Source: an uncultured Gammaproteobacteria bacterium
GTDB lineage: Bacteria > Patescibacteriota > Microgenomatia > PFEM01 > JAPLYW01
Direction of reading: 5' to 3'
DNA: 64,000 nucleotides
Assembly: GCA_965230945.1 (NCBI GenBank)
Contig: OZ246397.1
Coordinates: 374,284 to 438,283 of the forward strand
Made by a program: the position numbers and the translations under genes. The notes beneath the pieces were generated by a model. It made no database searches, was not told the DNA's origin, and was given only the letters and a program-made list of their open reading frames with translations. This document shows positions 2,860 through 44,344 of the stretch, piece by piece (position 1 is the first letter of the stretch; each line of letters begins with the position of its first letter).

Positions 2860-5559
2860 CTATATATTACCACAGTAATAATCACATCCATACGGTACTG
2901 ATTTAGGGATGTTAGGTGGTGCCATCTTGATTTTCCGGTCTACAGATTTAAATTCATAATGAAGATGAGGCCCAGTACTATTGCCTGTATTGTCTGATAG
3001 AGCAATAAGACTTCCTTTATAAATAAATTGACCTATCGTTACTAAGATTTTTTGTAAATGGGCATAGTAGGAGGAGAAGTTAATACCATTACATTTTCCT
3101 GAAATAGATACAGAGATTCCTCCTCCACCATACTTTCCTATCGATTGCACAAAACCTTCATGGGTGGCGAAGATAGCAGTGCCATTATTAATGACAATAT
3201 CAATTGCTTCTTGGCCTGTATGACTAAATTCTCCATCAGGACCCTGGCTGATTCTGGCGCCTGAAGCATTAGCTGGCCAACCAGAAGGACAATCTCCTGG
3301 TGGCTTCCCAATAATAATTATGGCATTAGCTATACCTTTATGTATTCCTGTCTCTAGCCCTTCTGTTCCTTCTACTTCAGTATTAAGGGTGACGGTGTTG
3401 ATGATGGCGCTGTCTTTGAAATAGGAGTCGAAGGTTTTAATACAGGTTAAAGTTTCGGAGGAGCTTATTTTTTCTGGTAAATTGCCAAAATCACATGGAT
3501 TTACTGGGGAGGGGATTCCTTTTTGGGCTACTGTAAATTCTTCTGTTAGTTTAGGGCGAATTAAGACAAAATTGCCTTTTGGTTTAATGGTGATGGTGTA
3601 GGTGACTATAGCCGGCAGTTGATCATTTTCAAATTTGTTACTAGAAACGCTTTTGGTAAGTTCAAAAAATTCAGATTCATAAGGAGAAATTACTTCTTGT
3701 TCAGCTACCCCAATCGTTCCTGGAAGAATAAAAGCACCACTGACAACCATGACAATAAATAAGGTTAAGGCAGCTAAACTGGCAAAGATGATGATGATAA
3801 AAGAAGCCACAGCCGCTGTTACCGGAAGGGTGGTAATACTGGTGAAAAAAGCTCCAACGCCACTACTAATGGCGGTCATGGTGGTTGGCACGGCTACAAA
3901 ACTAACTAAACCACCAATACCAATACCTAGAGGAATAATACCGACAAGGGCAAAAGGCATAGGAGCGATAACTAGTACTAGAGATCCAGCTAGGACAGCC
4001 AAAAAAGCTTTTTGAGGATCACGGAAAACTTTTTGAATAAGACTGACTGCCTTTTTACCTAATTCTATAAGAACGGTTGCGGCTACAACTACCCAACCAG
4101 GGGGTCCTGTAGCCGCCCCAGCCGCAACGACACCAATCTTAATCCCCAGCTTAATAGCCAGCTTGGTACCGATCTTTTTAAGGCCTAATTTCAGAGATTT
4201 ACCAAAGGCAGTTTTACCTAACCACCGGGCTGTTTTTTGGAAAACACCTTTCTTAATGAAACCCGTTAATGATTGATATTTGCCTTTTGTTAAAAATTTA
4301 ATTGCTCTTTGAGAAATATTGCTGATGGAACGAAATCTGTCTAAGCCTGACTTTAGGTAGTAAGAGTAGCTACGTTCTTCCGCCCATAGGGATTTTTTTT
4401 GAAGAGGAAGAATAATGTTTAATGGTGGGTAGTAAACCCCTTTTTGATTGGTAAGGTCTTCGTACTGATAATAATTTCTAATAATTTTAAAAAGAGAAGG
4501 AGAAGTTTCTTCTAATTCTTTAAATTCAAAAATCCTTGCTTGAAGATGATTAATGACGGGGTGTTTTTCAGATAACCCCATTTCCTTTAGGGTTTCAAGG
4601 GTAATTTGCAAATCTTCAGGCAAGAGGCCCTTATTAATTAATTCTCGGTATTTGGGATTTATTTCTGAAATAGCTTCTTTTAAAGCGGCCACGCGGAATG
4701 AATAAAAAGCTTTCTTAACTAAAGCGGCGCTAGCTTTGGGCTGGAATAAAACAAAAGCGGGGTTAAGATTTAATTTTTCTCTTCCTAGTTGCTCTTTGAT
4801 TTTAAGAACAATTTCTTTAGGAAGAGGAGGAAGCTCTCCAGATCTAGTTGCCTCTTTTTTAATTCTCTTTAACTTTTCTCTGATGGCGGCTGATTCTCTA
4901 GGGATAACCGCTATTTGTTGGGCTTCTTTATATGTTAAAGCAGGAATTTCTTGAACTAAACTACTTGAAATAATTTCTTCTTTTTCAGCCCCTAAATTCT
5001 TAATTACTTGCCTAATTTCTGGCTCAAAGTCTTTAATAATTTTTTGGTATTCAACTTCATGAAGAAGAGTTTTTGTGGCCGTTTGAGGAAGACGATCAAC
5101 TATTTTTAAGGTTAAATTTTGACTGGCTAATGCTAATAGGGTTGGGTTTTCTGATAAGTTTGGTTTGGCTTTGATTAGCTGTTGTTTTATTTTTTCAAGA
5201 AATTGTTTTTGGATTTTTTCAATTTGTTCGTTTAAACCAGGATATGTAAACTTTACTTCTTTTTGATAACGATTATCTAGATATTTTTGATAATCTGCTT
5301 TTAAGATTTCATAAGGAGGTAGGTTGGGGGCGGGTAACTCTGGTGGTCTTGAGAGGATTTCATAAATTTTTTCTTGAATAAGGATAAGGAATTTGGGGTT
5401 ATCAGGGCTAAGTCCTAAACCGAGGGATTGTTCTAAATTAATAACCTCACTATAAGCTTTTTCTCTACTGATTATTCTTTCAAGTGGCCATTCTTTAAGT
5501 TGAAGAGCATAAGCTAAGATTTGCAGATTTTGATATCGTTTGCGTTCTTCTGAGGTCAT
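2860..5559 (-). CDS. Large polytopic membrane protein with C-terminal M23 (LytM-type) peptidase domain; candidate T4SS-associated cell-wall hydrolase
   Basis: 899 aa with a central cluster of TM helices. The C-terminus carries M23 motifs (HTGQEAIDIV...GPHLHYEF). It overlaps the VirB4 gene by 4 nt. Confidence 0.75.
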   Translation of the reverse strand: MTSEERKRYQNLQILAYALQLKEWPLERIISREKAYSEVINLEQSLGLGLSPDNPKFLILIQEKIYEILSRPPELPAPNLPPYEILKADYQKYLDNRYQKEVKFTYPGLNEQIEKIQKQFLEKIKQQLIKAKPNLSENPTLLALASQNLTLKIVDRLPQTATKTLLHEVEYQKIIKDFEPEIRQVIKNLGAEKEEIISSSLVQEIPALTYKEAQQIAVIPRESAAIREKLKRIKKEATRSGELPPLPKEIVLKIKEQLGREKLNLNPAFVLFQPKASAALVKKAFYSFRVAALKEAISEINPKYRELINKGLLPEDLQITLETLKEMGLSEKHPVINHLQARIFEFKELEETSPSLFKIIRNYYQYEDLTNQKGVYYPPLNIILPLQKKSLWAEERSYSYYLKSGLDRFRSISNISQRAIKFLTKGKYQSLTGFIKKGVFQKTARWLGKTAFGKSLKLGLKKIGTKLAIKLGIKIGVVAAGAATGPPGWVVVAATVLIELGKKAVSLIQKVFRDPQKAFLAVLAGSLVLVIAPMPFALVGIIPLGIGIGGLVSFVAVPTTMTAISSGVGAFFTSITTLPVTAAVASFIIIIFASLAALTLFIVMVVSGAFILPGTIGVAEQEVISPYESEFFELTKSVSSNKFENDQLPAIVTYTITIKPKGNFVLIRPKLTEEFTVAQKGIPSPVNPCDFGNLPEKISSSETLTCIKTFDSYFKDSAIINTVTLNTEVEGTEGLETGIHKGIANAIIIIGKPPGDCPSGWPANASGARISQGPDGEFSHTGQEAIDIVINNGTAIFATHEGFVQSIGKYGGGGISVSISGKCNGINFSSYYAHLQKILVTIGQFIYKGSLIALSDNTGNSTGPHLHYEFKSVDRKIKMAPPNIPKSVPYGCDYYCGNI

Positions 5560-7388: not shown

Positions 7389-8181
7389 TTTTAATTAAAT
7401 CACTAATTTGGTTTTGAATATTGTTTTCTTTATTGGTTTTTGTTTTTTCTTTTTCTTCTAGAGGCTGGTTTTGAAGAGCAGCTTTGACCATCGGTGTTTG
7501 ATATTGAGAAGCTTCGGCCATTTGCTGGCCAGCTGATTCAGGATTATAAATGTCGTAAAAAAGACGAATTAATTCATGGTTATCAAGCTGATGGGCTTGA
7601 AGACCCAACCGCGAAAGCTGTCGCAAGAGATGGTCTCTTTTGGGGTAAAGGTTTATTTTGGCCTGCTGGATAATATACCCCTTATCTAAAGCTGGAGCTT
7701 GGCCTTGTTTTTTAAAGGGTAAATTAGACAAAGCAGAAGGAAGGGTAGTTTTTATGTTTTTAGCCAGCCCCATTTCTAAAGCTTCCATGGGAATGATGAT
7801 ATGGAATTTCTTATCCAAAACGTTGTTTTTTTGGACAGTTTCTTGGATAAATTCCTTGTATTTGGTAATTTGTTGTTTAATGAGTTGTCTTTTTTCTTTG
7901 GCTTCCCTTTCCGCTAGTAAAGCTAAATAAGAAGTAACATCTTTCCTGGTAGAGCGGATAAAAATCTGGATGGGGAAGGTTAAAGAATTTAATAAAGCAG
8001 CATAAGCATAAATGGTGGCTTCTTGCTCTTTTTCTGAAAGCAAACCGAAGTTAATGGCGGTGGTGCCGATAACAAGACAAGAAGAACCGTTTTTACGAAT
8101 GATAATCCCTTCTTGAATATCTTCTATTTCAAGATGATCTTGGGTTGAGGCCCTAATAGCCATTTTTATAGGATCAGCCAT
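7360..8181 (-). CDS. Hypothetical protein of the T4SS-like operon (no TM; N-terminal segment loosely resembling conjugative ATPase N-termini)
   Basis: 273-aa ORF that overlaps the VirB4 start by 29 nt and the upstream VirB3-like stop by 8 nt. It contains DIQEGIIIRKNGSSCLVIGTTAINFGLLSEKEQEATIYAYAALLNSLTFPIQIFIRS. Confidence 0.5.
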   Translation of the reverse strand: MADPIKMAIRASTQDHLEIEDIQEGIIIRKNGSSCLVIGTTAINFGLLSEKEQEATIYAYAALLNSLTFPIQIFIRSTRKDVTSYLALLAEREAKEKRQLIKQQITKYKEFIQETVQKNNVLDKKFHIIIPMEALEMGLAKNIKTTLPSALSNLPFKKQGQAPALDKGYIIQQAKINLYPKRDHLLRQLSRLGLQAHQLDNHELIRLFYDIYNPESAGQQMAEASQYQTPMVKAALQNQPLEEKEKTKTNKENNIQNQISDLIKNGTTVSKKE

Positions 8182-9326: not shown

Positions 9327-11153
9327 ATGATGGAATCTAAAGGTGATGGCGGTCACAATTTTAATAAAGAAGTCAGTAAACCTGAAGGAAAGAGGATTAT
9401 TTGGTCTGAAATGGGAAGTCTTTTGAAGGATGACTCTAAAGGAGAAAAGGTTATAAAAAATCCCTTTTTGACTAGGTTAGTAAAACTTCTTTCGACAGCT
9501 GATGAAAAACGTCTTGCCGGTAAAAATTTAAGAGCCTGGCTTGATGAGGGAGATAAAAGGTGGGTTTTGGGTGATGTTTCTAAAGAAGAATGGGAAATTG
9601 TGGCTGGTGTGATAGCCGAGAGACTTGATAAGCTTGCAGGCGAGGGTGATGAAGATGCAGATTTGTCTAAGACTCTGGGGGAAAGTTTAGAAAAATCAGG
9701 AGAAAAGACAGTAAGAGCGATTAGGGATCTTAAAAATTCTCAGGAGAAAAGACAACAAATTCTTGCTGGAGAAAGAGAAGAAGAAGTCCCAGATGATGAA
9801 GAAAAACAGAGAATAAAGCTCATTATGATGGTAGAGAAGATTGAGAATAATAATCTGCCGTTGACTGACTATCGTAATACAGATATTGCCGGAAGGATAG
9901 GGACGATGATAGAAGATGAAAAGGTAAATGAGGATTTAAGAAAAGAGTGCATGGCAAGATTGAGGCTTCGTCATTGTTCAGCTATTGCTGATGCCATTCC
10001 TCCAGGTTCCAAATTAGCAAAAGAGTTTCTTATTGAATCACTTACTAATCCAGAGTCTAGATATTATGTACTTCAGGGTGATGATTTCGATTTACTTTTA
10101 AGGAAAGGCTTACCCGGCCTAAAGGTGGCTGAAGCTTTTAAACTTTTAGAGAAAGCTTCTACTTTAGGTAGAGAGATAATAGATGAAAAAGGTAAGAAGG
10201 TAAGAAAGACCTTAATGGATGAAAGTTTGTCTTTGTCGCAAAGGGAAACAATCCTGAGATCTATTATTGAAAATTTAGGTGGTGGGAAAGAAGCTAAAAA
10301 ATCTTTACAGCTAGCCCAGAGGATAGCGAAAGCTACTTTGGAGACTTCAGTTTGGAATGTAAATATACTAGGTAACGATCCCTTGTCTGAGATAATCTAT
10401 TTTAAAAATTACAGATTTGGTCGAGCTAAGACAGCTAGGGATAAAGGTCCGCTATTAACCATCAGTAGAATTGAGGGTTTTGGTAGCTCTTTTTTTAGAA
10501 GTGCGAAGAATTTTGATCAAAAGATGCTTTTCATGCCCAATGAAGATTTAAAGAAGATTAATAAAGAGAGTGATGATAGTGAGAGGATAAATAGGCTTTT
10601 ACTAAGAAACAGAGGTAGAGACGATGGCGGGAAGTTGAATAAAAATGTGGGGAGATTTGAGCGCTTTCTTGATATTGATGAAATGGAATTTACTGGAATT
10701 GCTCCAGATTCTTACTTAGTATGGCTTGGTCTTAACTTACCCAGATTATTTTTTGTTAAGGATTTGCTTCTTAAAACTCATTGGGAGCCCCAAGATTTTA
10801 ATTCAGATGCCATTGAAAGTTGGGCGAAGCCAATCTCTGTGGTCGATCCTGAAGAAATTTTAGGATTGAGAGTTGAATTTGTAGCTGGTGCTTTCTGGTC
10901 AATTTTTTCAAGACCATCTGAAGCAATGAATAGTGGTTGGGATGGTTTTAGCCTTCAGGCAGTTATAAAAAATTTGACTCGCAGTTTTGAAATTAAAGAT
11001 GAGGAAGGAAGAGAAAAGGAGATTTCTTTTTTAGATCAAGATCGCCGGAATTTTGTTATTAAATATCTTAAAAATTTTGGTATTAATATATATCATGAAG
11101 CGGCTAAAATTGGTACAAAAATTCGTTATACGAAGAGATTTATTGGTAGGTAG
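9327..11153 (+). CDS. Hypothetical protein (608 aa, charged, no recognisable domain)
   Basis: Long ORF transcribed divergently from the T4SS-like operon. Confidence 0.5.
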   Translation: MMESKGDGGHNFNKEVSKPEGKRIIWSEMGSLLKDDSKGEKVIKNPFLTRLVKLLSTADEKRLAGKNLRAWLDEGDKRWVLGDVSKEEWEIVAGVIAERLDKLAGEGDEDADLSKTLGESLEKSGEKTVRAIRDLKNSQEKRQQILAGEREEEVPDDEEKQRIKLIMMVEKIENNNLPLTDYRNTDIAGRIGTMIEDEKVNEDLRKECMARLRLRHCSAIADAIPPGSKLAKEFLIESLTNPESRYYVLQGDDFDLLLRKGLPGLKVAEAFKLLEKASTLGREIIDEKGKKVRKTLMDESLSLSQRETILRSIIENLGGGKEAKKSLQLAQRIAKATLETSVWNVNILGNDPLSEIIYFKNYRFGRAKTARDKGPLLTISRIEGFGSSFFRSAKNFDQKMLFMPNEDLKKINKESDDSERINRLLLRNRGRDDGGKLNKNVGRFERFLDIDEMEFTGIAPDSYLVWLGLNLPRLFFVKDLLLKTHWEPQDFNSDAIESWAKPISVVDPEEILGLRVEFVAGAFWSIFSRPSEAMNSGWDGFSLQAVIKNLTRSFEIKDEEGREKEISFLDQDRRNFVIKYLKNFGINIYHEAAKIGTKIRYTKRFIGR

Positions 11154-23238: not shown

Positions 23239-23583
23239 GGGGATGTAAGAATCGACGGAAAAGTTCTTTAAAAGACTGCAGGCCGAGAATGATACTGCTC
23301 GTTAAAGTGTATCGAAAACAATTGGCGTAAATAAAAACGCTCCTGTTTACGCATACGCTTAAACAGTGCCCATTTTCTTCTTTCTTGGTGGGATGAATGG
23401 GTATCAACAAAGCCAAGATGCGATCTTAATGTTTGATTCACATTAAGGTTTAAGCCTGAGAATCTTTACCTTAACTTTCCGGTCAACAGGATCAGGTTAA
23501 GGCGAGAATTAAAAGTTGACTAAGCTTGTAGAAGTTTTTTAATAATTTTTTCGGACCCCGTTTCATCGCGGGCATCTCCACCA
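23239..23583 (+). ncRNA. ssrA: tmRNA (SsrA)
   Basis: The 5' end GGGGATGTAAGAATCGACGG matches tmRNA 5' ends. The 3' end GACTAAGCTTGTAGAAG...TTTCGGACCCCGTTTCATCGCGGGCATCTCCACCA matches the tmRNA tRNA-like domain and encodes CCA. The acceptor pairs GGGGATG with CATCTCC. It lies immediately 3' of smpB. Confidence 0.8.
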
Positions 23584-24317: not shown

Positions 24318-24404
24318 GGAGGAGTCGCATAGTCGGTCCATTGCGGGAGTTTGCTAAATTCCTGAGCCGCAAGGCTCACGTGGGTTCGAATCCCACCTCC
24401 TCCG
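24318..24404 (+). tRNA. tRNA-Ser (anticodon GCU)
   Basis: Acceptor GGAGGAG/CTCCTCC. Anticodon stem-loop GGAGT-TTGCTAA-ATTCC. Long variable arm, T-loop TTCGAAT, no encoded CCA. Confidence 0.8.
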
Positions 24405-24416
24405 CTTAAAATTTGA

Positions 24417-24503
24417 GGTGGGATGCCGGAGCGGTTTAACGGCCCGGTCTTGAAAACCGAGGAGGGTGTAAATCCTACGTGAGTTCGAATCTCACTCCCA
24501 CCG
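24417..24503 (+). tRNA. tRNA-Ser (anticodon UGA)
   Basis: Acceptor GGTGGGA/TCCCACC. Anticodon loop CTTGAAA, long variable arm, T-loop TTCGAAT. Confidence 0.75.
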
Positions 24504-24530
24504 CTTCCATGTTATAATTAATTTGGAAAG

Positions 24531-25061
24531 ATGCCTGCTCAAAATAAAACCAGATCAAGTACATTAACAACAAAGGTAGAGCCATTGAAGGTATTACTTG
24601 AATGGCAGGCCTCATCTAGAGTTTTTAAAGAGAAAAGTAGAGAGGCAATTACTACCATTGGAGCCATTTTAATTTTGGTTGGTATCATCCTCATTTTTCT
24701 AAAGGAATGGTTTTTGATTGCCGTCATTATTGCCCTGGCTTTCTTTTTTTATATCTTAAGTACTGTTAAACCAGAAAAAATTACTCATCAAATTAGCAAT
24801 AAAGGAATAGTCACTGGCGGTAAGAATTATCCTTGGGAACAGCTTTTAAGGTTTTGGTTTGAAGATCAAGGAGGGCAAGTCATTCTTTATGTTGATGGTT
24901 TTGAGAGATTTGCTTTTCGCTTAATGCTCCTTTTGGATGACAAAAAACCTCAAGATTTAAAAAAGATTCTTGCCGATTATCTTCCGGAAGAAAAGCCACC
25001 GCAGAATTGGGCTGATAAAGCTGGCAGTTGGATTTCTGATCAGATTCCTTTAGGTAAATAA
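24531..25061 (+). CDS. Hypothetical membrane protein (176 aa)
   Basis: ORF with a two-TM hairpin. Confidence 0.45.
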   Translation: MPAQNKTRSSTLTTKVEPLKVLLEWQASSRVFKEKSREAITTIGAILILVGIILIFLKEWFLIAVIIALAFFFYILSTVKPEKITHQISNKGIVTGGKNYPWEQLLRFWFEDQGGQVILYVDGFERFAFRLMLLLDDKKPQDLKKILADYLPEEKPPQNWADKAGSWISDQIPLGK

Positions 25062-25064
25062 TTT

Positions 25065-25138
25065 GTACCCGTAGCTCAACGGATTAGAGCGCGGCCCTGC
25101 GGAGGCCGAGGTTAGAGGTTCGAGTCCTCTCGGGTACG
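25065..25138 (+). tRNA. tRNA-Arg (anticodon read as GCG)
   Basis: Canonical cloverleaf GTACCCG-TA-GCTC-AACGGATTA-GAGC-G-CGGCC-CTGCGGA-GGCCG-AGGTT-AGAGG-TTCGAGT-CCTCT-CGGGTAC-G. Confidence 0.7.
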
Positions 25139-25157
25139 CACGTTTCTGCCATTTTAA

Positions 25158-25243
25158 GGAGGAGTGGCAGAGTGGTAATGCGATCGCCTCGAAAGCGATG
25201 GGGTTTTTAACCCTTGCAGGTTCGAATCCTGTCTCCTCCGCCA
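25158..25243 (+). tRNA. tRNA-Ser (anticodon CGA), CCA encoded
   Basis: Acceptor GGAGGAG. Anticodon stem-loop ATCGC-CTCGAAA-GCGAT. Long variable arm; the 3' end is ...CTCCTCC-G-CCA. Confidence 0.78.
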
Positions 25244-25244
25244 A

Positions 25245-25317
25245 GCCCTTGTAGCTTAAAGGATAAAGCAGTGGCTTCCGGAGCCAAAGATTAGAGGTTC
25301 GAGTCCTCTCAGGGGTA
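25245..25317 (+). tRNA. tRNA-Arg (anticodon CCG)
   Basis: Acceptor GCCCTTG/CAGGGGT with two G-U pairs. D-arm GCTT-AAAGGATA-AAGC. Anticodon loop TTCCGGA. T-arm identical to the 25065 tRNA. Confidence 0.65.
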
Positions 25318-25325
25318 CTTAGAAG

Positions 25326-25775
25326 ATGGAAAAAACTAAAAAAGAACTTTTAGCTGGTGAAGTGGTTTTTAAAAGGATAGGGAAAGAGATTCTTTGGTTA
25401 CTAATTAAGTCTAAAGAAAATGATCAATGGTCTCTTTCTAAAGATTACCTTAAGGGAGTGGAAAGTTCAGTGGCCGCTGCCAAAAGAGGGGTTAAAGAAG
25501 AAGTAGGGATAGAGACAGAGATTTTAGAAAAAATAGGTAACGAAAACTATTTCTTTTATGAAAACAAGCAAAGGACTTTTAAAACCGTCATTTTTTATTT
25601 AATGAGGCATCTTGAGGATATCAAAGATGACTTTCACCGGGAGACAAAAAAGATTGGCTGGTTCCCTTATTTCAAGGCTAAAAAAAGATTGGCCCTTGAA
25701 AAAGAAAAAGAGATTTTAAAAAAGGCTAAAGAGATTTTAAGACAAAAGGAAAGGCAGTTAAGATTAACAAAATAG
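25326..25775 (+). CDS. NUDIX-family hydrolase (divergent Nudix box)
   Basis: GVESSVAAAKRGVKEEVGIE resembles the Nudix box GX5EX7REUXEEXGU. Confidence 0.5.
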   Translation: MEKTKKELLAGEVVFKRIGKEILWLLIKSKENDQWSLSKDYLKGVESSVAAAKRGVKEEVGIETEILEKIGNENYFFYENKQRTFKTVIFYLMRHLEDIKDDFHRETKKIGWFPYFKAKKRLALEKEKEILKKAKEILRQKERQLRLTK

Positions 25776-25862
25776 GGAGGAGTCGCATAGCGGCCTAGTG
25801 CCCGTGCTTGGAAAGCGCTGGGGGATGAAAGTCCCACGTGGGTTCAAATCCCACCTCCTCCG
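25776..25862 (+). tRNA. tRNA-Ser (anticodon GGA)
   Basis: Acceptor GGAGGAG/CTCCTCC. Anticodon loop TTGGAAA, long variable arm, T-loop TTCAAAT. Confidence 0.7.
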
Positions 25863-25869
25863 CTCATAG

Positions 25870-26550: not shown

Positions 26551-28347
26551 ATGGACCAGCTAGAAGAGATTAAAAAAAGAATTGACATAGTTAACTTTAT
26601 CGGTCAATATTTAGATTTAAAAAAGGCGGGTAGGAATTTTAAAGCCATTTGCCCTTTCCATCAAGAAAAAACACCTTCTTTTATTGTTTCTCCTGAGCGT
26701 CAAATTTGGCATTGTTTTGGCCAATGTGGCGAAGGGGGAGATATTTTTGGTTTTTTAATGAAAATGGAGAATTTGGATTTTGCCGAAGCGGTTAAAGAAT
26801 TGGCCAAAAAAGCCGGTGTTAAATTAACTCAGTATCGACCTGCAGGCGGAGAAAGAAAAAAACAACTTTGGTACGAGATTAATCATTTGACAGCAGAATT
26901 TTATCATTATCTTTTAGTAAATCATCCAGTCGGTAAAAAAGCTTTGCATTATATTTTAGGTCGGGGAGTTAGTAAAGAGTCGATTAAACTTTTTAAAATT
27001 GGCTTTAGCCCAGATACTTGGCGGAATTTACAGGCTTTTTTAATTAGAAAGAAGCATTATTCGCCAGAAGACTTAGAAAAGACTGGTTTAATTATTAAAA
27101 GCGAATCAGGTAAATATTATGATCGTTTCCGGGGCCGATTAATTTTTCCCTTAAAAGATCATCGGGGTAATATTTGTGGTTTTTCAGGAAGAATTCTTAC
27201 TCAGGAAGCCAAAGAAGCCAAATATGTTAATACTCCCGAAACGCCTCTTTATCATAAATCTGATCTTTTGTATGGTCTTTTTGAAGCAAAAGAAGCCATT
27301 AAGGAAAAGGATCAAATTATTTTAGTAGAGGGCGAGCTTGATGTTATATCTTCTTATCAGGTGGGGGTTAAGAACGTGGTTGCCATCAAGGGTTCGGCTT
27401 TAACAGAAAGTCAGGTAAAATTATTGGAGAGGCTTACCAAAAACATTGTTTTTGCTTTAGATCAAGATGCCGCTGGTGATCAGGCTTCAAGAAGGGGGAT
27501 TGAGATTGCCGATAAAGCCGAGATGGATATCAATGTCGTTGAGCTTAAAAAAGGTAAAGATCCTGATGAACTGGCTCAGAAAAATCCTCATCTTTGGAAA
27601 AAACTTGTCAAAGAATCAGTGCCTGTTTATGACTACTTTATTAATTCAGCCCTCAATCGTTTCAAGCCAGAAACAATTGCTGGTAAAAGAAAAATCAGTC
27701 AAGAGTTAATACCCCTTTTAAGCAAAATTAATAATGAAATTATTCGTGCTCATTACGCTCGTTTATTAGCTGATAAATTAAAAGTTTCTCAAGAGTCAAT
27801 TTTAGAAGAAATGGCGAGATTAGAGAGCAGCCAGCGGCCAGAATACGAATCATCATCAGAAGAGCAAGATAAAGGAAGTAAAAAAAGCAGACGGGAAGTT
27901 CTGGAAGAATATCTTTTATCTTTGGCTTTTCATTCGGGTAATTGGCAGTTTTTGAAGAAGAGAAAAGTTGCTAGTTTGATTAAAACCTACCGTTTACAAA
28001 GAATTTTAGAAACTTTAAAGCGTTATTTTAAAAAGTACAAGACGATAGAGAGCGGTAGATTGGCGAAAATGCTTGACCCGGAGCTTTTAGACACCTTTGA
28101 TGCTTTTTATTTGGCTGACTTAGGAAATCTAACAGAAAGTGAAGAGAAATTAAACACTGAATTTGAAAAAACCTTAAAGAGACTGAAAAAGACGGATTTA
28201 TTAGAGAAATTAAAGTTAATTAGTGATAAAATAAAGATTCTAGAGAAGCAAGTTAAGCCTTCTTCCAAAGGACAGAAGAATTTAGATAAACTTTATATTG
28301 AATTTCGTGATTTTTCAGCTGAGTTAGCTGAGTTTGAGAAAGAATAA
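26551..28347 (+). CDS. dnaG: DNA primase
   Basis: CHC2 zinc finger ([34 protein letters not shown]) and a Toprim region ([11 protein letters not shown]). Confidence 0.92.
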
Positions 28348-28349
28348 CG

Positions 28350-29477
28350 ATGCCAGTGAAAAAAACAGTCAAACCAAAGAAAAACAAAAAGGAAATTAAA
28401 AGAGAGCAACAGATTAAGGATCTTATTGCCAAAGGCAGAAGAAAAGGTTTTGTTACTCAAGAGGAAATTTTAAAGATCTTTTCTGATGCCGAGTTGCATA
28501 TTGAAGAACTAGATGATCTTTATGTCAAGCTTTTAGATAGCAAGATTGATGTTTTTGAAACCGTTACCGAAGAAGAAATTGCCGAGGATGAGAAAGCAAC
28601 AACGGAACTTTCCAAAGAATTAGAGGTCTTATCTACTTTAGAGGATAGATCCTTAACTGATCCAGTCAGAATGTATCTTAAAGAAATTGGCAGAATTTCC
28701 TTATTGACAGCCGAGGAAGAAGTTGACTTAGCTCAAAGGGTAGAGAAGAGCGAGAAAAAAGCTAGATCTAAATTAATCCAATCCAATTTGAGATTGGTGG
28801 TTTCTATTGCCAAGAGGTATTTAGGCAGAAGAATGAGTTTCTTAGATTTAATTCAGGAAGGCAACCAGGGACTTATGCGAGCGGTGGAAAAATTTGACTG
28901 GAGAAGGGGTTATAAGTTCTCCACCTATGCTACTTGGTGGATCAGACAGGCAATAACCAGAGCCATTGCTGACCAGGCCAGAACCATTAGAATTCCTGTT
29001 CATATGGTGGAGACCATTAATAAGCTAAGCCAGACGGCCAGACGGATGACTCAAGAATTAGGTCGGGAGGTAACCAATGAAGAGCTAGCCAAAAAAATGG
29101 AGTTAACTCCACAAAGAGTTCAAGAGATTTTTAAGATTGCCCAAGAAACAACTTCTTTAGAGAAACCAGTAGGCAATGAAGAAGATTCTTTTTTAGGGGA
29201 TTTCATTCAAGATACTTCTCAGCCATCACCATATGATAGCGCTTCTAAACAGTTCTTAAAGGAAAACATTGAAGAAGTTTTCCAAACCCTATCTGAAAGA
29301 GAAGCCAAAGTTTTAAAGATGAGGTTTGGTTTAGCCGGGTATCGATCGATGACTTTGGAAGAAGTCGGTAGGGAGTTTGGAGTTACCAGGGAAAGAATAA
29401 GGCAGATTGAAGCTAAAGCTCTACGCAGACTTAAACATCCTTCAAGAAGAAAGAAACTTCAAGATTATTTGGAATAA
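28350..29477 (+). CDS. rpoD: RNA polymerase sigma-70 factor
   Basis: Region 1.2/2 ([29 protein letters not shown]), region 2.4 ([27 protein letters not shown]) and region 4 ([27 protein letters not shown]). Confidence 0.93.
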
Positions 29478-29507: not shown

Positions 29508-29769
29508 TCCGGCGTAGCTCAACGGTAGAGCGGATCCCTGTCAAAAGGCAGCCTTTTCCAGTAATGGGAAAGTGAAAATCGGGCTAATTCGGGGAACCCC
29601 TTTAACATTAAAGGGCAATCCCGAGCTAAATCATAATTTAAAATTATGTAAATGTGTAGAGACTATATACCCGGCTTCCTAAATTAGGAAGAAGAGATAG
29701 TCCAGACCTTTTGGTAACAAGAGGATTTCTGTAAGGATAAGGTTGTAGGTTCGAATCCTACCGCCGGAG
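29508..29769 (+). tRNA. tRNA-Asn (anticodon GUU) interrupted by a group I intron in the anticodon loop
   Basis: 5' exon 29508-29541 is TCCGGCG-TA-GCTC-AACGGTA-GAGC-G-GATCC-CTGT. 3' exon 29732-29769 is TAA-GGATA-AGGTT-GTAGG-TTCGAAT-CCTAC-CGCCGGA-G. Joined, the loop is CUGUUAA, the same as E. coli tRNA-Asn. Confidence 0.75.
29542..29731 (+). ncRNA. Group I self-splicing intron (ORF-less, ~190 nt) within tRNA-Asn
   Basis: P1 pairs exon CUGU with intron GCAG, giving a U.G pair at the 5' splice site. The P7 strands are AGACTA and TAGTC. A perfect P8 hairpin CTTCCTAAATTAGGAAG lies between them. The intron ends in G before the 3' exon. The element order P7-P3'-P8-P7'-P9 is as expected. Confidence 0.75.
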
Positions 29770-29784
29770 CTAGCTTCAGAAAAT

Positions 29785-29805
29785 CGCCAAAAAGGCGGTT
29801 TTTTG
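29785..29805 (+). terminator. Rho-independent terminator after tRNA-Asn
   Basis: Hairpin CGCC-aaaaa-GGCG followed by TTTTTT. Confidence 0.6.
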
Positions 29806-29819
29806 TTAGAATAAAACAT

Positions 29820-30143
29820 ATGGTTACTTTTGATGATTTTAAAAAACTTGATATAAGAATTGGTGAGGTTATTTCGGTTGAAAAAATTCCTAACACCGAT
29901 AAACTATTAAAATTTATTTTTGATATTGGTGATGAAAAGAGACAAATAATAGCAGGAATGGCTGATTTTTTCTCTGATATTTCTTCTTTAATTGGCAAGG
30001 AAATGCCTTTATTAGTTAACATTGAGCCTATGGAATTTAAGGGTCATAAAAGTGAGGGAATGATTATTGCAGCAGATGTTGATGGTAAACCTATTTTACT
30101 TCATCCTGAGAAAGAAATTCCTGCAGGTAGCATGGTTAAATAA
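29820..30143 (+). CDS. tRNA-binding domain protein (CsaA/Trbp111-like OB fold)
   Basis: FDDFKKLDIRIGEVISVEKIPNTDKLLKFIFDIGDEKRQIIAGMADFF...KSEGMIIAAD matches the CsaA/EMAP-type tRNA-binding domain. Confidence 0.75.
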   Translation: MVTFDDFKKLDIRIGEVISVEKIPNTDKLLKFIFDIGDEKRQIIAGMADFFSDISSLIGKEMPLLVNIEPMEFKGHKSEGMIIAADVDGKPILLHPEKEIPAGSMVK

Positions 30144-30834: not shown

Positions 30835-31239
30835 ATGAATACATACAATTGGTATTCACAATTAATTAAACCGAGTTGGGCACCGGCAAGTTGGCTTTTC
30901 GGGCCGGTATGGACGGTACTTTATGTGATTATTACTATCACTTATGGCACAGTTTTTTATAAAGCGTTTACAAAACAGATTCCTTGGATTATGACTTTGC
31001 CTTTTTTACTCAATCTATTCTTTAATTTTATTTTCACTCCAATTCAATTCGGGCTCAAAAACAATCTACTTGCGTCTCTTGATATTCTTCTCGTTATTGG
31101 TACTCTTATTTGGGCATTTTACGTTATTTGGAATAACGTGCCCGAATTACGCTGGGTCGTCTATGCTAATATTCCTTATCTCTTGTGGGGAGCATTTGCC
31201 ACTTGTCTTCAAATTACAATCACATATTTGAATAAATAA
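30835..31239 (+). CDS. TspO/MBR-family protein, N-terminally truncated relative to the paralog at 37515
   Basis: KPSWAPASWLFGPVWTVLY and the following TM helices match TspO. The first TM helix is missing. Confidence 0.65.
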   Translation: MNTYNWYSQLIKPSWAPASWLFGPVWTVLYVIITITYGTVFYKAFTKQIPWIMTLPFLLNLFFNFIFTPIQFGLKNNLLASLDILLVIGTLIWAFYVIWNNVPELRWVVYANIPYLLWGAFATCLQITITYLNK

Positions 31240-32697: not shown

Positions 32698-33240
32698 ATG
32701 ATAACTATTATTTTTGAATCTCATGGAACAACTTATGATAGCGAAAAGAGCGTATCTTCAGGCCATGCCGATGCGAAATTATCCTCATTAGGGAAGAAAC
32801 AAGCGAAGGAACTAGGAAAAAGATATGAAGATAAAAATTTAGACGCTGTGTTTTGTTCAGATTTATCACGCTCCTATAAAACAGGCAAAATTGCTTTTAG
32901 AGAAAGGAATGTTCCCATAGTTAAGGATAAAAGACTCCGTGAATGTGATTATGGGGACTTAACTCAACACTCATCAAAAGAAGTAGAGCCTTTTAAAATA
33001 AAACACATAAAGACTCCTTTTCCAAATGGAGAAAGTTATGAACAAGCCGCTGAGAGGATGAGGAGTTTCTTGCAAGATTTACTTAAGGATTATGATGGTA
33101 AGACGGTCATGATTATTGGCCATCGGGCTACACAATATGGATTGGAACATTGGATAAAAGGCTTACCACTTAAAGATATTATTGTGATTCCTTTTAAGTG
33201 GCAACCTGGCTGGACTTACTGTCTAGAAAAGCTAAACTAG
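32698..33240 (+). CDS. Histidine phosphatase (phosphoglycerate-mutase-like) family protein with atypical SHG instead of RHG
   Basis: IIFESHGTTYDS...SSLGKKQAKELGKRY...DAVFCSDLSRSYKT; C-terminal IIGHRATQ. Confidence 0.55.
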   Translation: MITIIFESHGTTYDSEKSVSSGHADAKLSSLGKKQAKELGKRYEDKNLDAVFCSDLSRSYKTGKIAFRERNVPIVKDKRLRECDYGDLTQHSSKEVEPFKIKHIKTPFPNGESYEQAAERMRSFLQDLLKDYDGKTVMIIGHRATQYGLEHWIKGLPLKDIIVIPFKWQPGWTYCLEKLN

Positions 33241-37514: not shown

Positions 37515-37973
37515 ATGATTAAACTTATTGCCTCAATCATTGTCTGCCAACTAACTGGCATTATTGGAGCTATTTTTACTACTCCTTCTATTTCTGGTTG
37601 GTATGCCGGCCTTAACAAGCCTTTTTTTAATCCACCCAATTGGCTGTTTGGTCCAGTTTGGACACTGCTTTATTTATTAATGGGAATTTCCTTATATTTG
37701 GTTTGGAAACAAAAAGGTGGAGCAGAAATAAGAACAGCCTTAATCTTTTTTACGATTCAATTGGGGCTTAACACTCTTTGGTCAATAATCTTTTTTGGCA
37801 TGCGCTTACCTTCAGTTGCTTTTATTGAAATTCTTATTCTTTTGGTTTTTATAGTTTTAACTATCATCAAGTTTTTTCCGTTATCAAAAGTTTCAGCTTA
37901 TCTATTAATCCCTTATCTTTTATGGGTAAGTTTTGCGAGCCTTCTAAACTTTTACATTGTTAAGCTCAACTAG
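37515..37973 (+). CDS. TspO/MBR-family tryptophan-rich sensory protein (full length)
   Basis: 152 aa with 5 TM helices. Motifs NKPFFNPPNWLFGPVWTLLY and LNTLWSIIFF. Confidence 0.8.
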   Translation: MIKLIASIIVCQLTGIIGAIFTTPSISGWYAGLNKPFFNPPNWLFGPVWTLLYLLMGISLYLVWKQKGGAEIRTALIFFTIQLGLNTLWSIIFFGMRLPSVAFIEILILLVFIVLTIIKFFPLSKVSAYLLIPYLLWVSFASLLNFYIVKLN

Positions 37974-43768: not shown

Positions 43769-44344
43769 ATGAAAAGAAAAGTAAGTTTAATCTTAGTTAG
43801 ACACGGCGAAACTAAAGGCAATGTCAATGATATTTTAATAGGTCATGGTGATAGTCCGTTTACCGAATTAGGCAAGAAACAAAATAGGGCAGTGGCTAGA
43901 CAGTTGAAAAAAGAAAAGATTAATGCTCTTTATTCTTCTCCTTTAGGTAGGGCTGAAAAAACAGCCGAAATAATTGTAGAGGAACTAGACGGTTTAAAAA
44001 TTAAGATAGAGCCTCTTCTGATAGAGAGAGATTTTGGTGCTTTGACCGGTAAACATAAAAACGAAATGTCTAAATATAGTTCTAAAATTCTTAAAAGAGA
44101 CAAAGTTGATTATTTTTTAGAGGCTAAAAATTCAGAGACGTTCCCTCAACTGTTAAAAAGAGCATATAAAGTAGTAGAAAAGATGGAGAAAAACTACCCT
44201 CGTCAAACAGTTTTACTAGTTACCCATGGGGATATCGGTAAAATGATTCAAGCTGCTTATTATGGCTGGGATTGGCAAAAAGGAATAGAGGCTCCTTACT
44301 TTGGTCACGATGATATTTTGAAGCTAATTCCCAAGAATGAGTAA
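43769..44344 (+). CDS. Histidine phosphatase family protein (phosphoglycerate mutase-like)
   Basis: Canonical LILVRHGETKGN and SSPLGRAEKTAEI motifs; HGD near the C-terminus. Confidence 0.8.
   Translation: MKRKVSLILVRHGETKGNVNDILIGHGDSPFTELGKKQNRAVARQLKKEKINALYSSPLGRAEKTAEIIVEELDGLKIKIEPLLIERDFGALTGKHKNEMSKYSSKILKRDKVDYFLEAKNSETFPQLLKRAYKVVEKMEKNYPRQTVLLVTHGDIGKMIQAAYYGWDWQKGIEAPYFGHDDILKLIPKNE

Follow-up and report, generated by a model that had tools for sequence, protein, structure and literature searches.

The locus raises the question of whether two halves of a tRNA-Asn, held apart by an insertion in the anticodon, represent a gene interrupted by a self-splicing intron and, if so, how such an intron relates to those already described. 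The stretch of DNA that was analysed, referred to here as the window, is 64,000 nt long. Its positions 29508-29769 on the plus strand very probably constitute a tRNA-Asn(GUU) gene whose anticodon is split at U35/U36 by a compact self-splicing group I intron belonging to a class known from Patescibacteria. The novelty implied for this split tRNA-Asn by the original prediction does not hold, as the class has been published together with in vitro splicing (PMC13011429).

The published account comes from Nakagawa, Amikura, Omae and Suzuki (mSystems 2026, PMC13011429; preprint 10.1101/2025.07.03.662931), who found the same intron class in Patescibacteria and who, in their citation, credit the first listing to Williams 2020 (bioRxiv 10.1101/2020.01.27.920355), where the class is called 'Asn.4Ug'. 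Within 95 complete Patescibacteria genomes, 15 tRNA-Asn(GUU) and three tRNA-Asp(GUC) genes were reported with group I introns at 35/36; the introns are classed as IA, have lengths of 184-894 nt and mostly have no endonuclease gene, four of the tRNA-Asn introns carrying HNH genes (PMC13011429). Sequencing showed that homologues from GCA_016700035.1 (tRNA-Asn) and GCA_001029755.1 (tRNA-Asp) splice themselves precisely in vitro, an activity that is abolished when the terminal G is mutated to C (PMC13011429). The Patescibacteria genomes surveyed usually have a single tRNA gene per anticodon, and only rarely does one genome combine a copy with an intron and a copy without one for the same anticodon (PMC13011429). 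Judged from its sequence, the window intron is a typical and apparently intact further example of this class.

The split gene and its splice junction

The gene is made up of the following parts:

29508-29541, plus strand: exon 1, tRNA positions 1-35 (acceptor UCCGGCG, D arm, 5' strand of the anticodon stem, then C32 U33 G34 U35)
29542-29731, plus strand: group I intron, 190 nt, ORF-less (RF00028 match, fold statistics, covariation in homologues)
29732-29769, plus strand: exon 2, tRNA positions 36-73 (U36 A37 A38, 3' strand of the anticodon stem, variable loop, T arm, 3' strand of the acceptor, G73)

Exon 1 reads UCCGGCG-UA-GCUC-AACGGUA-GAGC-G-GAUCC-CUGU and exon 2 UAA-GGAUA-AGGUU-GUAGG-UUCGAAU-CCUAC-CGCCGGA-G. 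Joined together, they give a 72-nt cloverleaf with U1-A72 as its first pair, G73 as discriminator, the anticodon loop CUGUUAA and the anticodon GUU; the exon 2 sequence does not encode the CCA end. In its default mode ARAGORN makes no call at 29508-29769 and calls six other tRNAs in the window, and once the junction 29541/29732 is spliced in silico it calls tRNA-Asn(gtt). The original prediction had the halves rejoin into a tRNA with the loop CUGUUAA and placed the insertion between anticodon positions 35 and 36. Both claims are borne out, with exon 1 ending in G34 U35 and exon 2 opening with U36 A37 A38.

Species-representative genomes were scanned with the exon-1 pattern GTAGCTCAACGGTAGAGC-N6-CTGT, which gave at least 120 matches. 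Intronless tRNA-Asn genes with an exon 1-type 5' half account for 93 of the 120 matches listed and include those of MAGs named Roizman-, Nomura-, Davies-, Woese- and Curtissbacteria, Parcubacteria and Saccharibacteria. Related lineages thus hold the intronless tRNA-Asn alleles for which the original prediction had proposed a search. Among the matches listed, the closest to the spliced tRNA is the intronless tRNA-Asn of a Curtissbacteria MAG (L065) at 89% identity, with the nine next-closest intronless tRNA-Asn genes at 82-88%; identity is at most 71% to tRNA-Asp genes and at most 67% to tRNA-His genes with the same D arm. The anticodon stem contains a G27.A43 mismatch. A 27:43 mismatch, as G.A or A.G, recurs in Patescibacteria and Dormibacterota tRNA-Asn genes that lack an intron, and this purine-purine opposition is therefore apparently a lineage trait rather than damage.

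The position of the junction was tested by combining 13 candidate 5' ends with 20 candidate 3' ends and running each of the 260 in-silico splices through ARAGORN. The program is very permissive and accepted many anticodons across the 260 junctions. As ARAGORN alone cannot fix the junction, the rule of U at -1 and a terminal G, the register of P1 and the similarity to intronless tRNAs were used instead. Only at 29541/29732 does a tRNA of normal length go together with a U at -1 and an intron that ends in G.

It is highly improbable that the gene is a tRNA-Thr(UGU) with its intron at 33/34, the boundary lying two bases upstream, even though ARAGORN accepts the junction 29539/29730 as tRNA-Thr(tgt) and both ARAGORN and tFind often choose the 33/34 boundary for tRNA-Asn 35/36 introns. 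Moreover, in 37 of 45 related introns, whose 3' end reads ...G-U-G/UAA, the rule of U(-1) and terminal G is satisfied by both boundaries. In the window, however, the Thr(UGU) junction would leave the intron ending in C29729 (...UUUC) and not in G, and the P1 pairing of CUGU with GCAG, with its U35.G pair, sets the splice site after U35 in 43 of 43 homologues. The tRNA body, with U1-A72 and G73, has 82-89% identity to the ten closest intronless tRNA-Asn genes among the matches listed, and the homologues spliced in vitro gave the 35/36 junction (PMC13011429). The 3' end of the window intron, ...UUUCUG/UAA, is unambiguous, whereas most relatives end in ...GUG/UAA and are open to the Thr(UGU) mis-call.

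A tRNA-Asp(GUC) spliced at 29542/29733, one base further downstream, is scarcely credible at all. ARAGORN does accept this junction as tRNA-Asp(gtc), with a length equal to that of the Asn call, and tRNA-Asp genes also host the same intron family. Nevertheless, it would leave C at -1 and an intron ending in U, which breaks both splice-site rules and the P1 register, and the real interrupted tRNA-Asp genes of the family have a different body (a GCGGCU acceptor and an exon 2 starting with CAC), to which the 71% ceiling on identity given above applies. No other exon junction of the kind that could have undone the original prediction survives, the Thr(UGU) and Asp(GUC) junctions both breaking the splice-site rule, and the gene is taken below as tRNA-Asn(GUU) with its intron at 35/36.

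Architecture, covariation and predicted splicing

The Rfam model Intron_gpI (RF00028) matches 29548-29724 over its full length (model positions 1-253) with 81.5 bits against a gathering threshold of 50 and an E-value of 3.6e-19, so that the intron passes the scoring put forward with the original prediction. The MFE z-score of the intron is -4.06, none of 200 shuffles giving an equally good fold, and the MFE fold of the intron alone contains P2, P3, P4, P5, P6a, P8 and P9. A complete P1-P9 fold was also specified, in which every pair is standard in the window copy. Its elements, with pairing values taken over alignment cells, are:

29538-29551, plus strand: P1, exon C32-U35 and intron nucleotide 1 (29538-29542) with the guide GGCAG (29547-29551)
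29553-29572, plus strand: P2 hairpin, 8 bp, GNRA tetraloop GUAA at 29561-29564; double changes in 8 of 8 pairs
29579-29583, plus strand: 5' strand of P3, UCGGG, pairing with 29670-29674; 96.7% of cells paired, 3 of 5 pairs compensatory
29589-29624, plus strand: P4 (29589-29594/29619-29624) enclosing P5 (29598-29603/29610-29615), also in the RNAalifold and MFE folds
29625-29655, plus strand: P6 (29625-29626/29654-29655) and P6a (29632-29638/29642-29648); 7 of 7 P6a pairs covary
29661-29665, plus strand: 5' strand of P7, GACUA, pairing with 29698-29702; invariant in 43 of 43, aligned to P7 of RF00028
29670-29674, plus strand: 3' strand of P3, CCCGG, in a pseudoknot with P7
29675-29691, plus strand: P8 hairpin, 7 perfect pairs and a 3-nt loop; 85.8% of cells paired, 6 of 7 pairs covary
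29698-29702, plus strand: 3' strand of P7, UAGUC, preceded by J8/7 GAAGAGA
29707-29724, plus strand: P9 hairpin, 7 bp, GNRA tetraloop GUAA at 29714-29717; 96.8% of cells paired, 6 of 7 pairs covary
29731, plus strand: terminal guanosine (omega-G), ...AUUUCUG/UAAGG; G in 43 of 43 homologues

Most of the hallmarks named in the original prediction recur in this fold. The P1 proposed there, exon CUGU with intron GCAG and a U.G pair at the 5' splice site, is found and is one pair longer, C29538-U29541 plus C29542 pairing with G29547-G29551 and the wobble U29541.G29548 marking the splice site within CUGUC/GGCAG. The perfect P8 hairpin is present, with its 7 bp placed between the 3' strands of P3 and P7, and the terminal G before the 3' exon is G29731, at the end of the tail AUUUCUG that follows P9. 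For P7, given as AGACUA and UAGUC, the five pairs of GACUA with UAGUC stand and the extra 5' A is unpaired. The expected length of about 190 nt without a homing-endonuclease ORF is likewise confirmed, with the largest ORF wholly within 29542-29731 coding for 36 aa. J7/3 consists of the four nucleotides UAUA, which leaves the window intron without P7.1/P7.2 insertions; its structure also has no P5abc and, as judged by eye, no convincing P10 pairing.

Support for the fold comes from homologues. The window intron can be aligned over its whole length with 42 other tRNA-Asn introns, and an alignment of all 43 (A2), including 6 nt of each exon, contains 49 invariant columns, every one of which is kept in the window copy. 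The nearest intron among the matches listed, L230, is 82% identical to that of the window. RNAalifold on A2 recovers P1, P2, P4, P5, P6, P7 and P9, compensatory changes being present in 23 of the 37 pairs; P3 and P8 are missing because P3/P7 is a pseudoknot and because two subfamilies are one column off register at P3. The P1 pairing of CUGU with GCAG, including the U.G pair, is invariant in 43 of 43 homologues, and the pair that extends it, between intron nucleotide 1 and the base 5' of GCAG, covaries (CG 22, GC 14, AU 6, UG 1). Covariation over the 43 homologues is also seen in the anticodon-stem pairs flanking the intron, two in the RNAalifold structure (CG 22, GC 12, UA 6, AU 3). The loops L2 and L9 are GNRA in all 43.

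A second alignment (A3) covers the window's own subfamily of 18 sequences and was assessed against the hand-specified P1-P9 structure including the P3/P7 pseudoknot. Standard pairs are formed by 91.1% of the cells, against 31-45% with the partners slid by 1-3 columns, a comparison that somewhat favours the specified structure as it was written from the window sequence. The counts of compensatory pairs are independent of that choice, and double changes are seen in 37 of the 60 pairs. The covariation score is 0.467 as observed and 0.156 when shuffled, and 0 of 500 shuffles reach any of the observed measures. P7 is uninformative for covariation because it is invariant, an invariance that has to be read in the light of the metagenome scan pattern, which itself demanded the P7 core sequence. 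Overall, every helix that varies shows covariation, which supports a conserved P3-P9 core with the P3/P7 pseudoknot.

The way in which the intron would leave the precursor follows established group I chemistry. The anticodon-loop bases C32-U35 and the first intron base would pair with the guide GGCAG to form P1, placing the U35.G pair at the 5' splice site, whilst the P3-P8 and P4-P6 domains with their P3/P7 pseudoknot would form the core, steadied by the GNRA loops on P2 and P9. The core would then bind free guanosine, with P7 as the presumed guanosine-binding helix, and this guanosine would attack after U35. Subsequently, the terminal G29731 would take the place of the guanosine and the free 3'-OH of U35 would attack before U36, ligating the exons into a normal tRNA with the loop CUGUUAA and releasing the intron. 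Catalysis by the window copy would be expected by homology, introns of the same class being precise in vitro.

Against this expectation, the intron could be thought of as a decayed, non-splicing relic, the tRNA-Asn copy being a pseudogene and another copy elsewhere doing the work. The number of tRNA-Asn copies is known for the 64,000-nt window alone and the window copy is known from DNA alone, and RF00028 scores are low for some members of the family, with no match for L031 and L080. Yet the RF00028 score of the window is the second-highest of the copies scored, all P1-P9 pairs are standard, the 49 positions that are invariant in 43 sequences are all kept, and the exons are intact and canonical; in addition, a genome that paired this gene with an intronless tRNA-Asn would be one of the rare mixed cases of the published survey. 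A relic is thus very unlikely, and the intact, splicing intron is much the better reading.

Group I splicing needs a free guanosine nucleotide and Mg2+. This opens the idea that the intron is kept as a regulatory device that ties the supply of mature tRNA-Asn to guanosine-nucleotide status, which is unlikely, if less so than the relic. Were it true, and were this the sole genomic copy, translation could follow guanosine-nucleotide status in an organism that has few regulatory proteins. The context for such a reading is that the tRNA-Asn gene lies directly behind dnaG-rpoD. Control at the RNA level was raised by Nakagawa et al. as speculation only (PMC13011429).

Relatives of the intron and other tRNA introns

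Relatives were collected from the genome scan described above and from metagenomes, which were scanned with a P7-to-P7' core pattern and gave at least 121 regions. Among the 120 genome matches listed, at least six other tRNA-Asn genes are interrupted at CUGU/...G/UAA (L008, L031, L038, L080, L110 and L044), as are at least six tRNA-Asp genes. L080 belongs to Wildermuthbacteria and L110, with an intron of 527 nt, to the Patescibacteria group; the L044 intron has 517 nt. The class also occurs outside Patescibacteria, for example in the Acidobacteriota (L038). Of 84 hosts resolved automatically among the metagenome matches listed, 45 are tRNA-Asn(GUU) at 35/36, 11 Asp and 4 Tyr, with the remainder mostly Leu(UAA), counts that are approximate since the automatic boundaries mis-resolved several true tRNA-Asn genes as 'Leu(taa)' or 'Asp'; L133, L186, L202, L215, L231 and L239 were re-read by hand as tRNA-Asn hosts.

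The tRNA-Asn introns among the metagenome matches listed are 177-555 nt long, seven of them exceeding 300 nt, and the 190 nt of the window intron is typical of the ORF-less majority. Long relatives of 472-555 nt occur. Two long introns contain ORFs with a Cys...Cys-His stretch that is HNH-like by eye (L241:~5070-5300(-), ...CANCHREIE...; L201:~3340-3570(-), ...CSNCHRELH...), inserted in the P1 loop just 5' of the GCAGC guide, which fits the HNH-bearing variants in the published survey. The window intron has no endonuclease gene and for this reason is probably immobile and vertically inherited.

Scores with RF00028 are uneven within the one family. The highest of the copies scored is L038 at 87.1 bits, followed by the window at 81.5, with L205 at 69 and L186 at 56; L031:2095-2283 and L080:5294-5473 align end to end with the family and have no RF00028 match at E<=0.01. 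Such uneven sensitivity means that surveys relying on Rfam only would under-count the class.

With the Patescibacterial tRNA-Asn 35/36 class the window intron shares the host tRNA, the insertion site, U(-1), the terminal G, the length range and the lack of an endonuclease gene that is usual for the class, and introns from Patescibacteria-named MAGs align with it throughout. Default tRNA finders miss or mis-call members of the class, the window copy included, and the published members were missed or mis-called Thr(UGU)/Ala(UGC) by ARAGORN and tFind (PMC13011429). Nothing substantive differs, the window intron ending in ...CUG/UAA where most relatives have ...GUG/UAA. In each defining class feature tested, namely host tRNA, 35/36 site and homology, the element agrees, at the level of sequence, with the published class.

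The 35/36 introns of tRNA-Asp(GUC) and tRNA-Tyr(GUA) have a core in common with that of the window, comprising the GCAGC guide, GUAGAGACUA, AUAGUCC and GNRA-capped P2 and P9, together with the same 5' exon end CUGU forming P1. CUGU, the 5' exon half of P1, is common to all tRNAs with GUN anticodons, in keeping with the presence of the family at the same site of Asn, Asp and Tyr hosts. The differences lie in the tRNA body and in the first base of exon 2, which is C or A compared with U in the window; the sampled tRNA-Asp introns, moreover, belong to the 'GGGAUAACGGUG' subfamily and the window intron to the 'GGGCUAAUUCGGGG' subfamily.

The classical group I introns of bacterial tRNAs are those of cyanobacterial and plastid tRNA-Leu(UAA) at 34/35, tRNA-fMet at 33/34, Azoarcus tRNA-Ile and Agrobacterium tRNA-Arg. 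Like the window intron, they are compact and ORF-less members of a self-splicing class, lie in the anticodon loop, draw P1 from anticodon-loop bases, carry peripheral GNRA loops and match RF00028. They differ in their insertion sites and host tRNAs, and are classed as IC3, in contrast to the Patescibacterial 35/36 introns, which Nakagawa et al. place in IA.

Several further loci deserve a brief description. A groundwater metagenome contig (L161) carries two intron-bearing tRNA-Asn(GUU) genes about 3 kb apart, at 7465-7643(+) and 10429-10622(-), with differing introns of 179 and 194 nt. In five MAGs of Acidobacteria gp2 (L027, L036, L068, L076 and L096) a tRNA-Asn 5' half runs through CTGTTAA into unrelated sequence, with no matching 3' half in the following 2.5 kb, or less where the locus ends sooner, and no RF00028 match; these could be large or divergent insertions at or beyond position 38, or leftover attachment-site fragments. 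Finally, the tRNA-Asp genes of some CPR-named MAGs have the T arm GGGGUCAGCACCC (L024, L046, L111 and exon 2 of L004, L006, L019, L077 and L098), with a T loop that lacks the near-universal UUCGAAU consensus.

Genomic setting, host and annotation

The main value of the locus lies in annotation, and it holds no new biology beyond the published class. Default tRNA finders skip the gene, so that a genome bin containing it would seem to be without tRNA-Asn and its completeness estimate would be lowered. The window copy is a clean reference example because its ...CUG/UAA 3' end excludes the Thr(UGU) mis-call. An almost certainly spurious antisense ORF of 112 aa at 29684-30022 (-) lies across the 3' part of the intron, exon 2 and the tRNA_bind gene, and gene-calling software could report it where the tRNA has been missed.

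Upstream of the tRNA-Asn gene are an MFS transporter gene, dnaG (26551-28347) and rpoD (28350-29477). The order dnaG-rpoD-tRNA-Asn is kept in many of the loci scanned, with or without an intron and across phyla. Two features follow the gene:

29783-29804, plus strand: possible intrinsic terminator, AUCGCC-AAAAA-GGCGGU and then a T run; weak, seen by eye and not flagged by the terminator scan
29820-30143: tRNA_bind gene (Pfam), downstream of tRNA-Asn

Further downstream, Pfam identifies TspO, Pyr_excise, DUF378, His_Phos_1, NTPase_I-T, NUDIX, DUF2177 and a second TspO, and then two response regulators, a histidine kinase, a second His_Phos_1, HAD and an alpha/beta hydrolase; several downstream ORFs have no Pfam match. 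The original prediction had a cassette island begin directly 3' of the gene, for which the surroundings give no support. The tRNA 3' end occurs only once in the window, the larger ORFs scanned over 16 kb downstream include no integrase or transposase by Pfam, and the GC content is 0.33-0.40 on either side of the gene with no shift in composition. A genomic or cassette island bounded by tRNA-Asn was rejected on these grounds. Within 14 kb downstream of the tRNA lie two pairs of paralogues, of TspO/MBR (30835-31239 and 37515-37973) and of His_Phos_1 (32698-33240 and 43769-44344).

With regard to the host, the RpoD of the window is also encoded, with identical neighbouring genes, on the unbinned JGI metagenome contig Ga0111034_1264064. 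DnaG is 40-46% identical to that of CPR-named MAG loci (Daviesbacteria, Saccharibacteria and Wildermuthbacteria) as against 31-38% for other named phyla, and these identities favour a CPR/Patescibacteria origin of the window. Six third-party MAG assemblies labelled 'uncultured Gammaproteobacteria' (L008, L031, L070, L105, L115 and L119) have tRNA-Asn genes that resemble those of CPR MAGs, and the DnaG proteins of L070 and L119 are 41-45% identical to that of the window, within the range of the CPR-named MAGs. The 'uncultured Gammaproteobacteria' labels of these assemblies look doubtful.

Elsewhere in the window, a tmRNA gene (121 bits) at 23239-23583 is followed by six tRNA genes at 24318-25863, four for Ser (GCU, UGA, CGA and GGA) and two for Arg (GCG and CCG).
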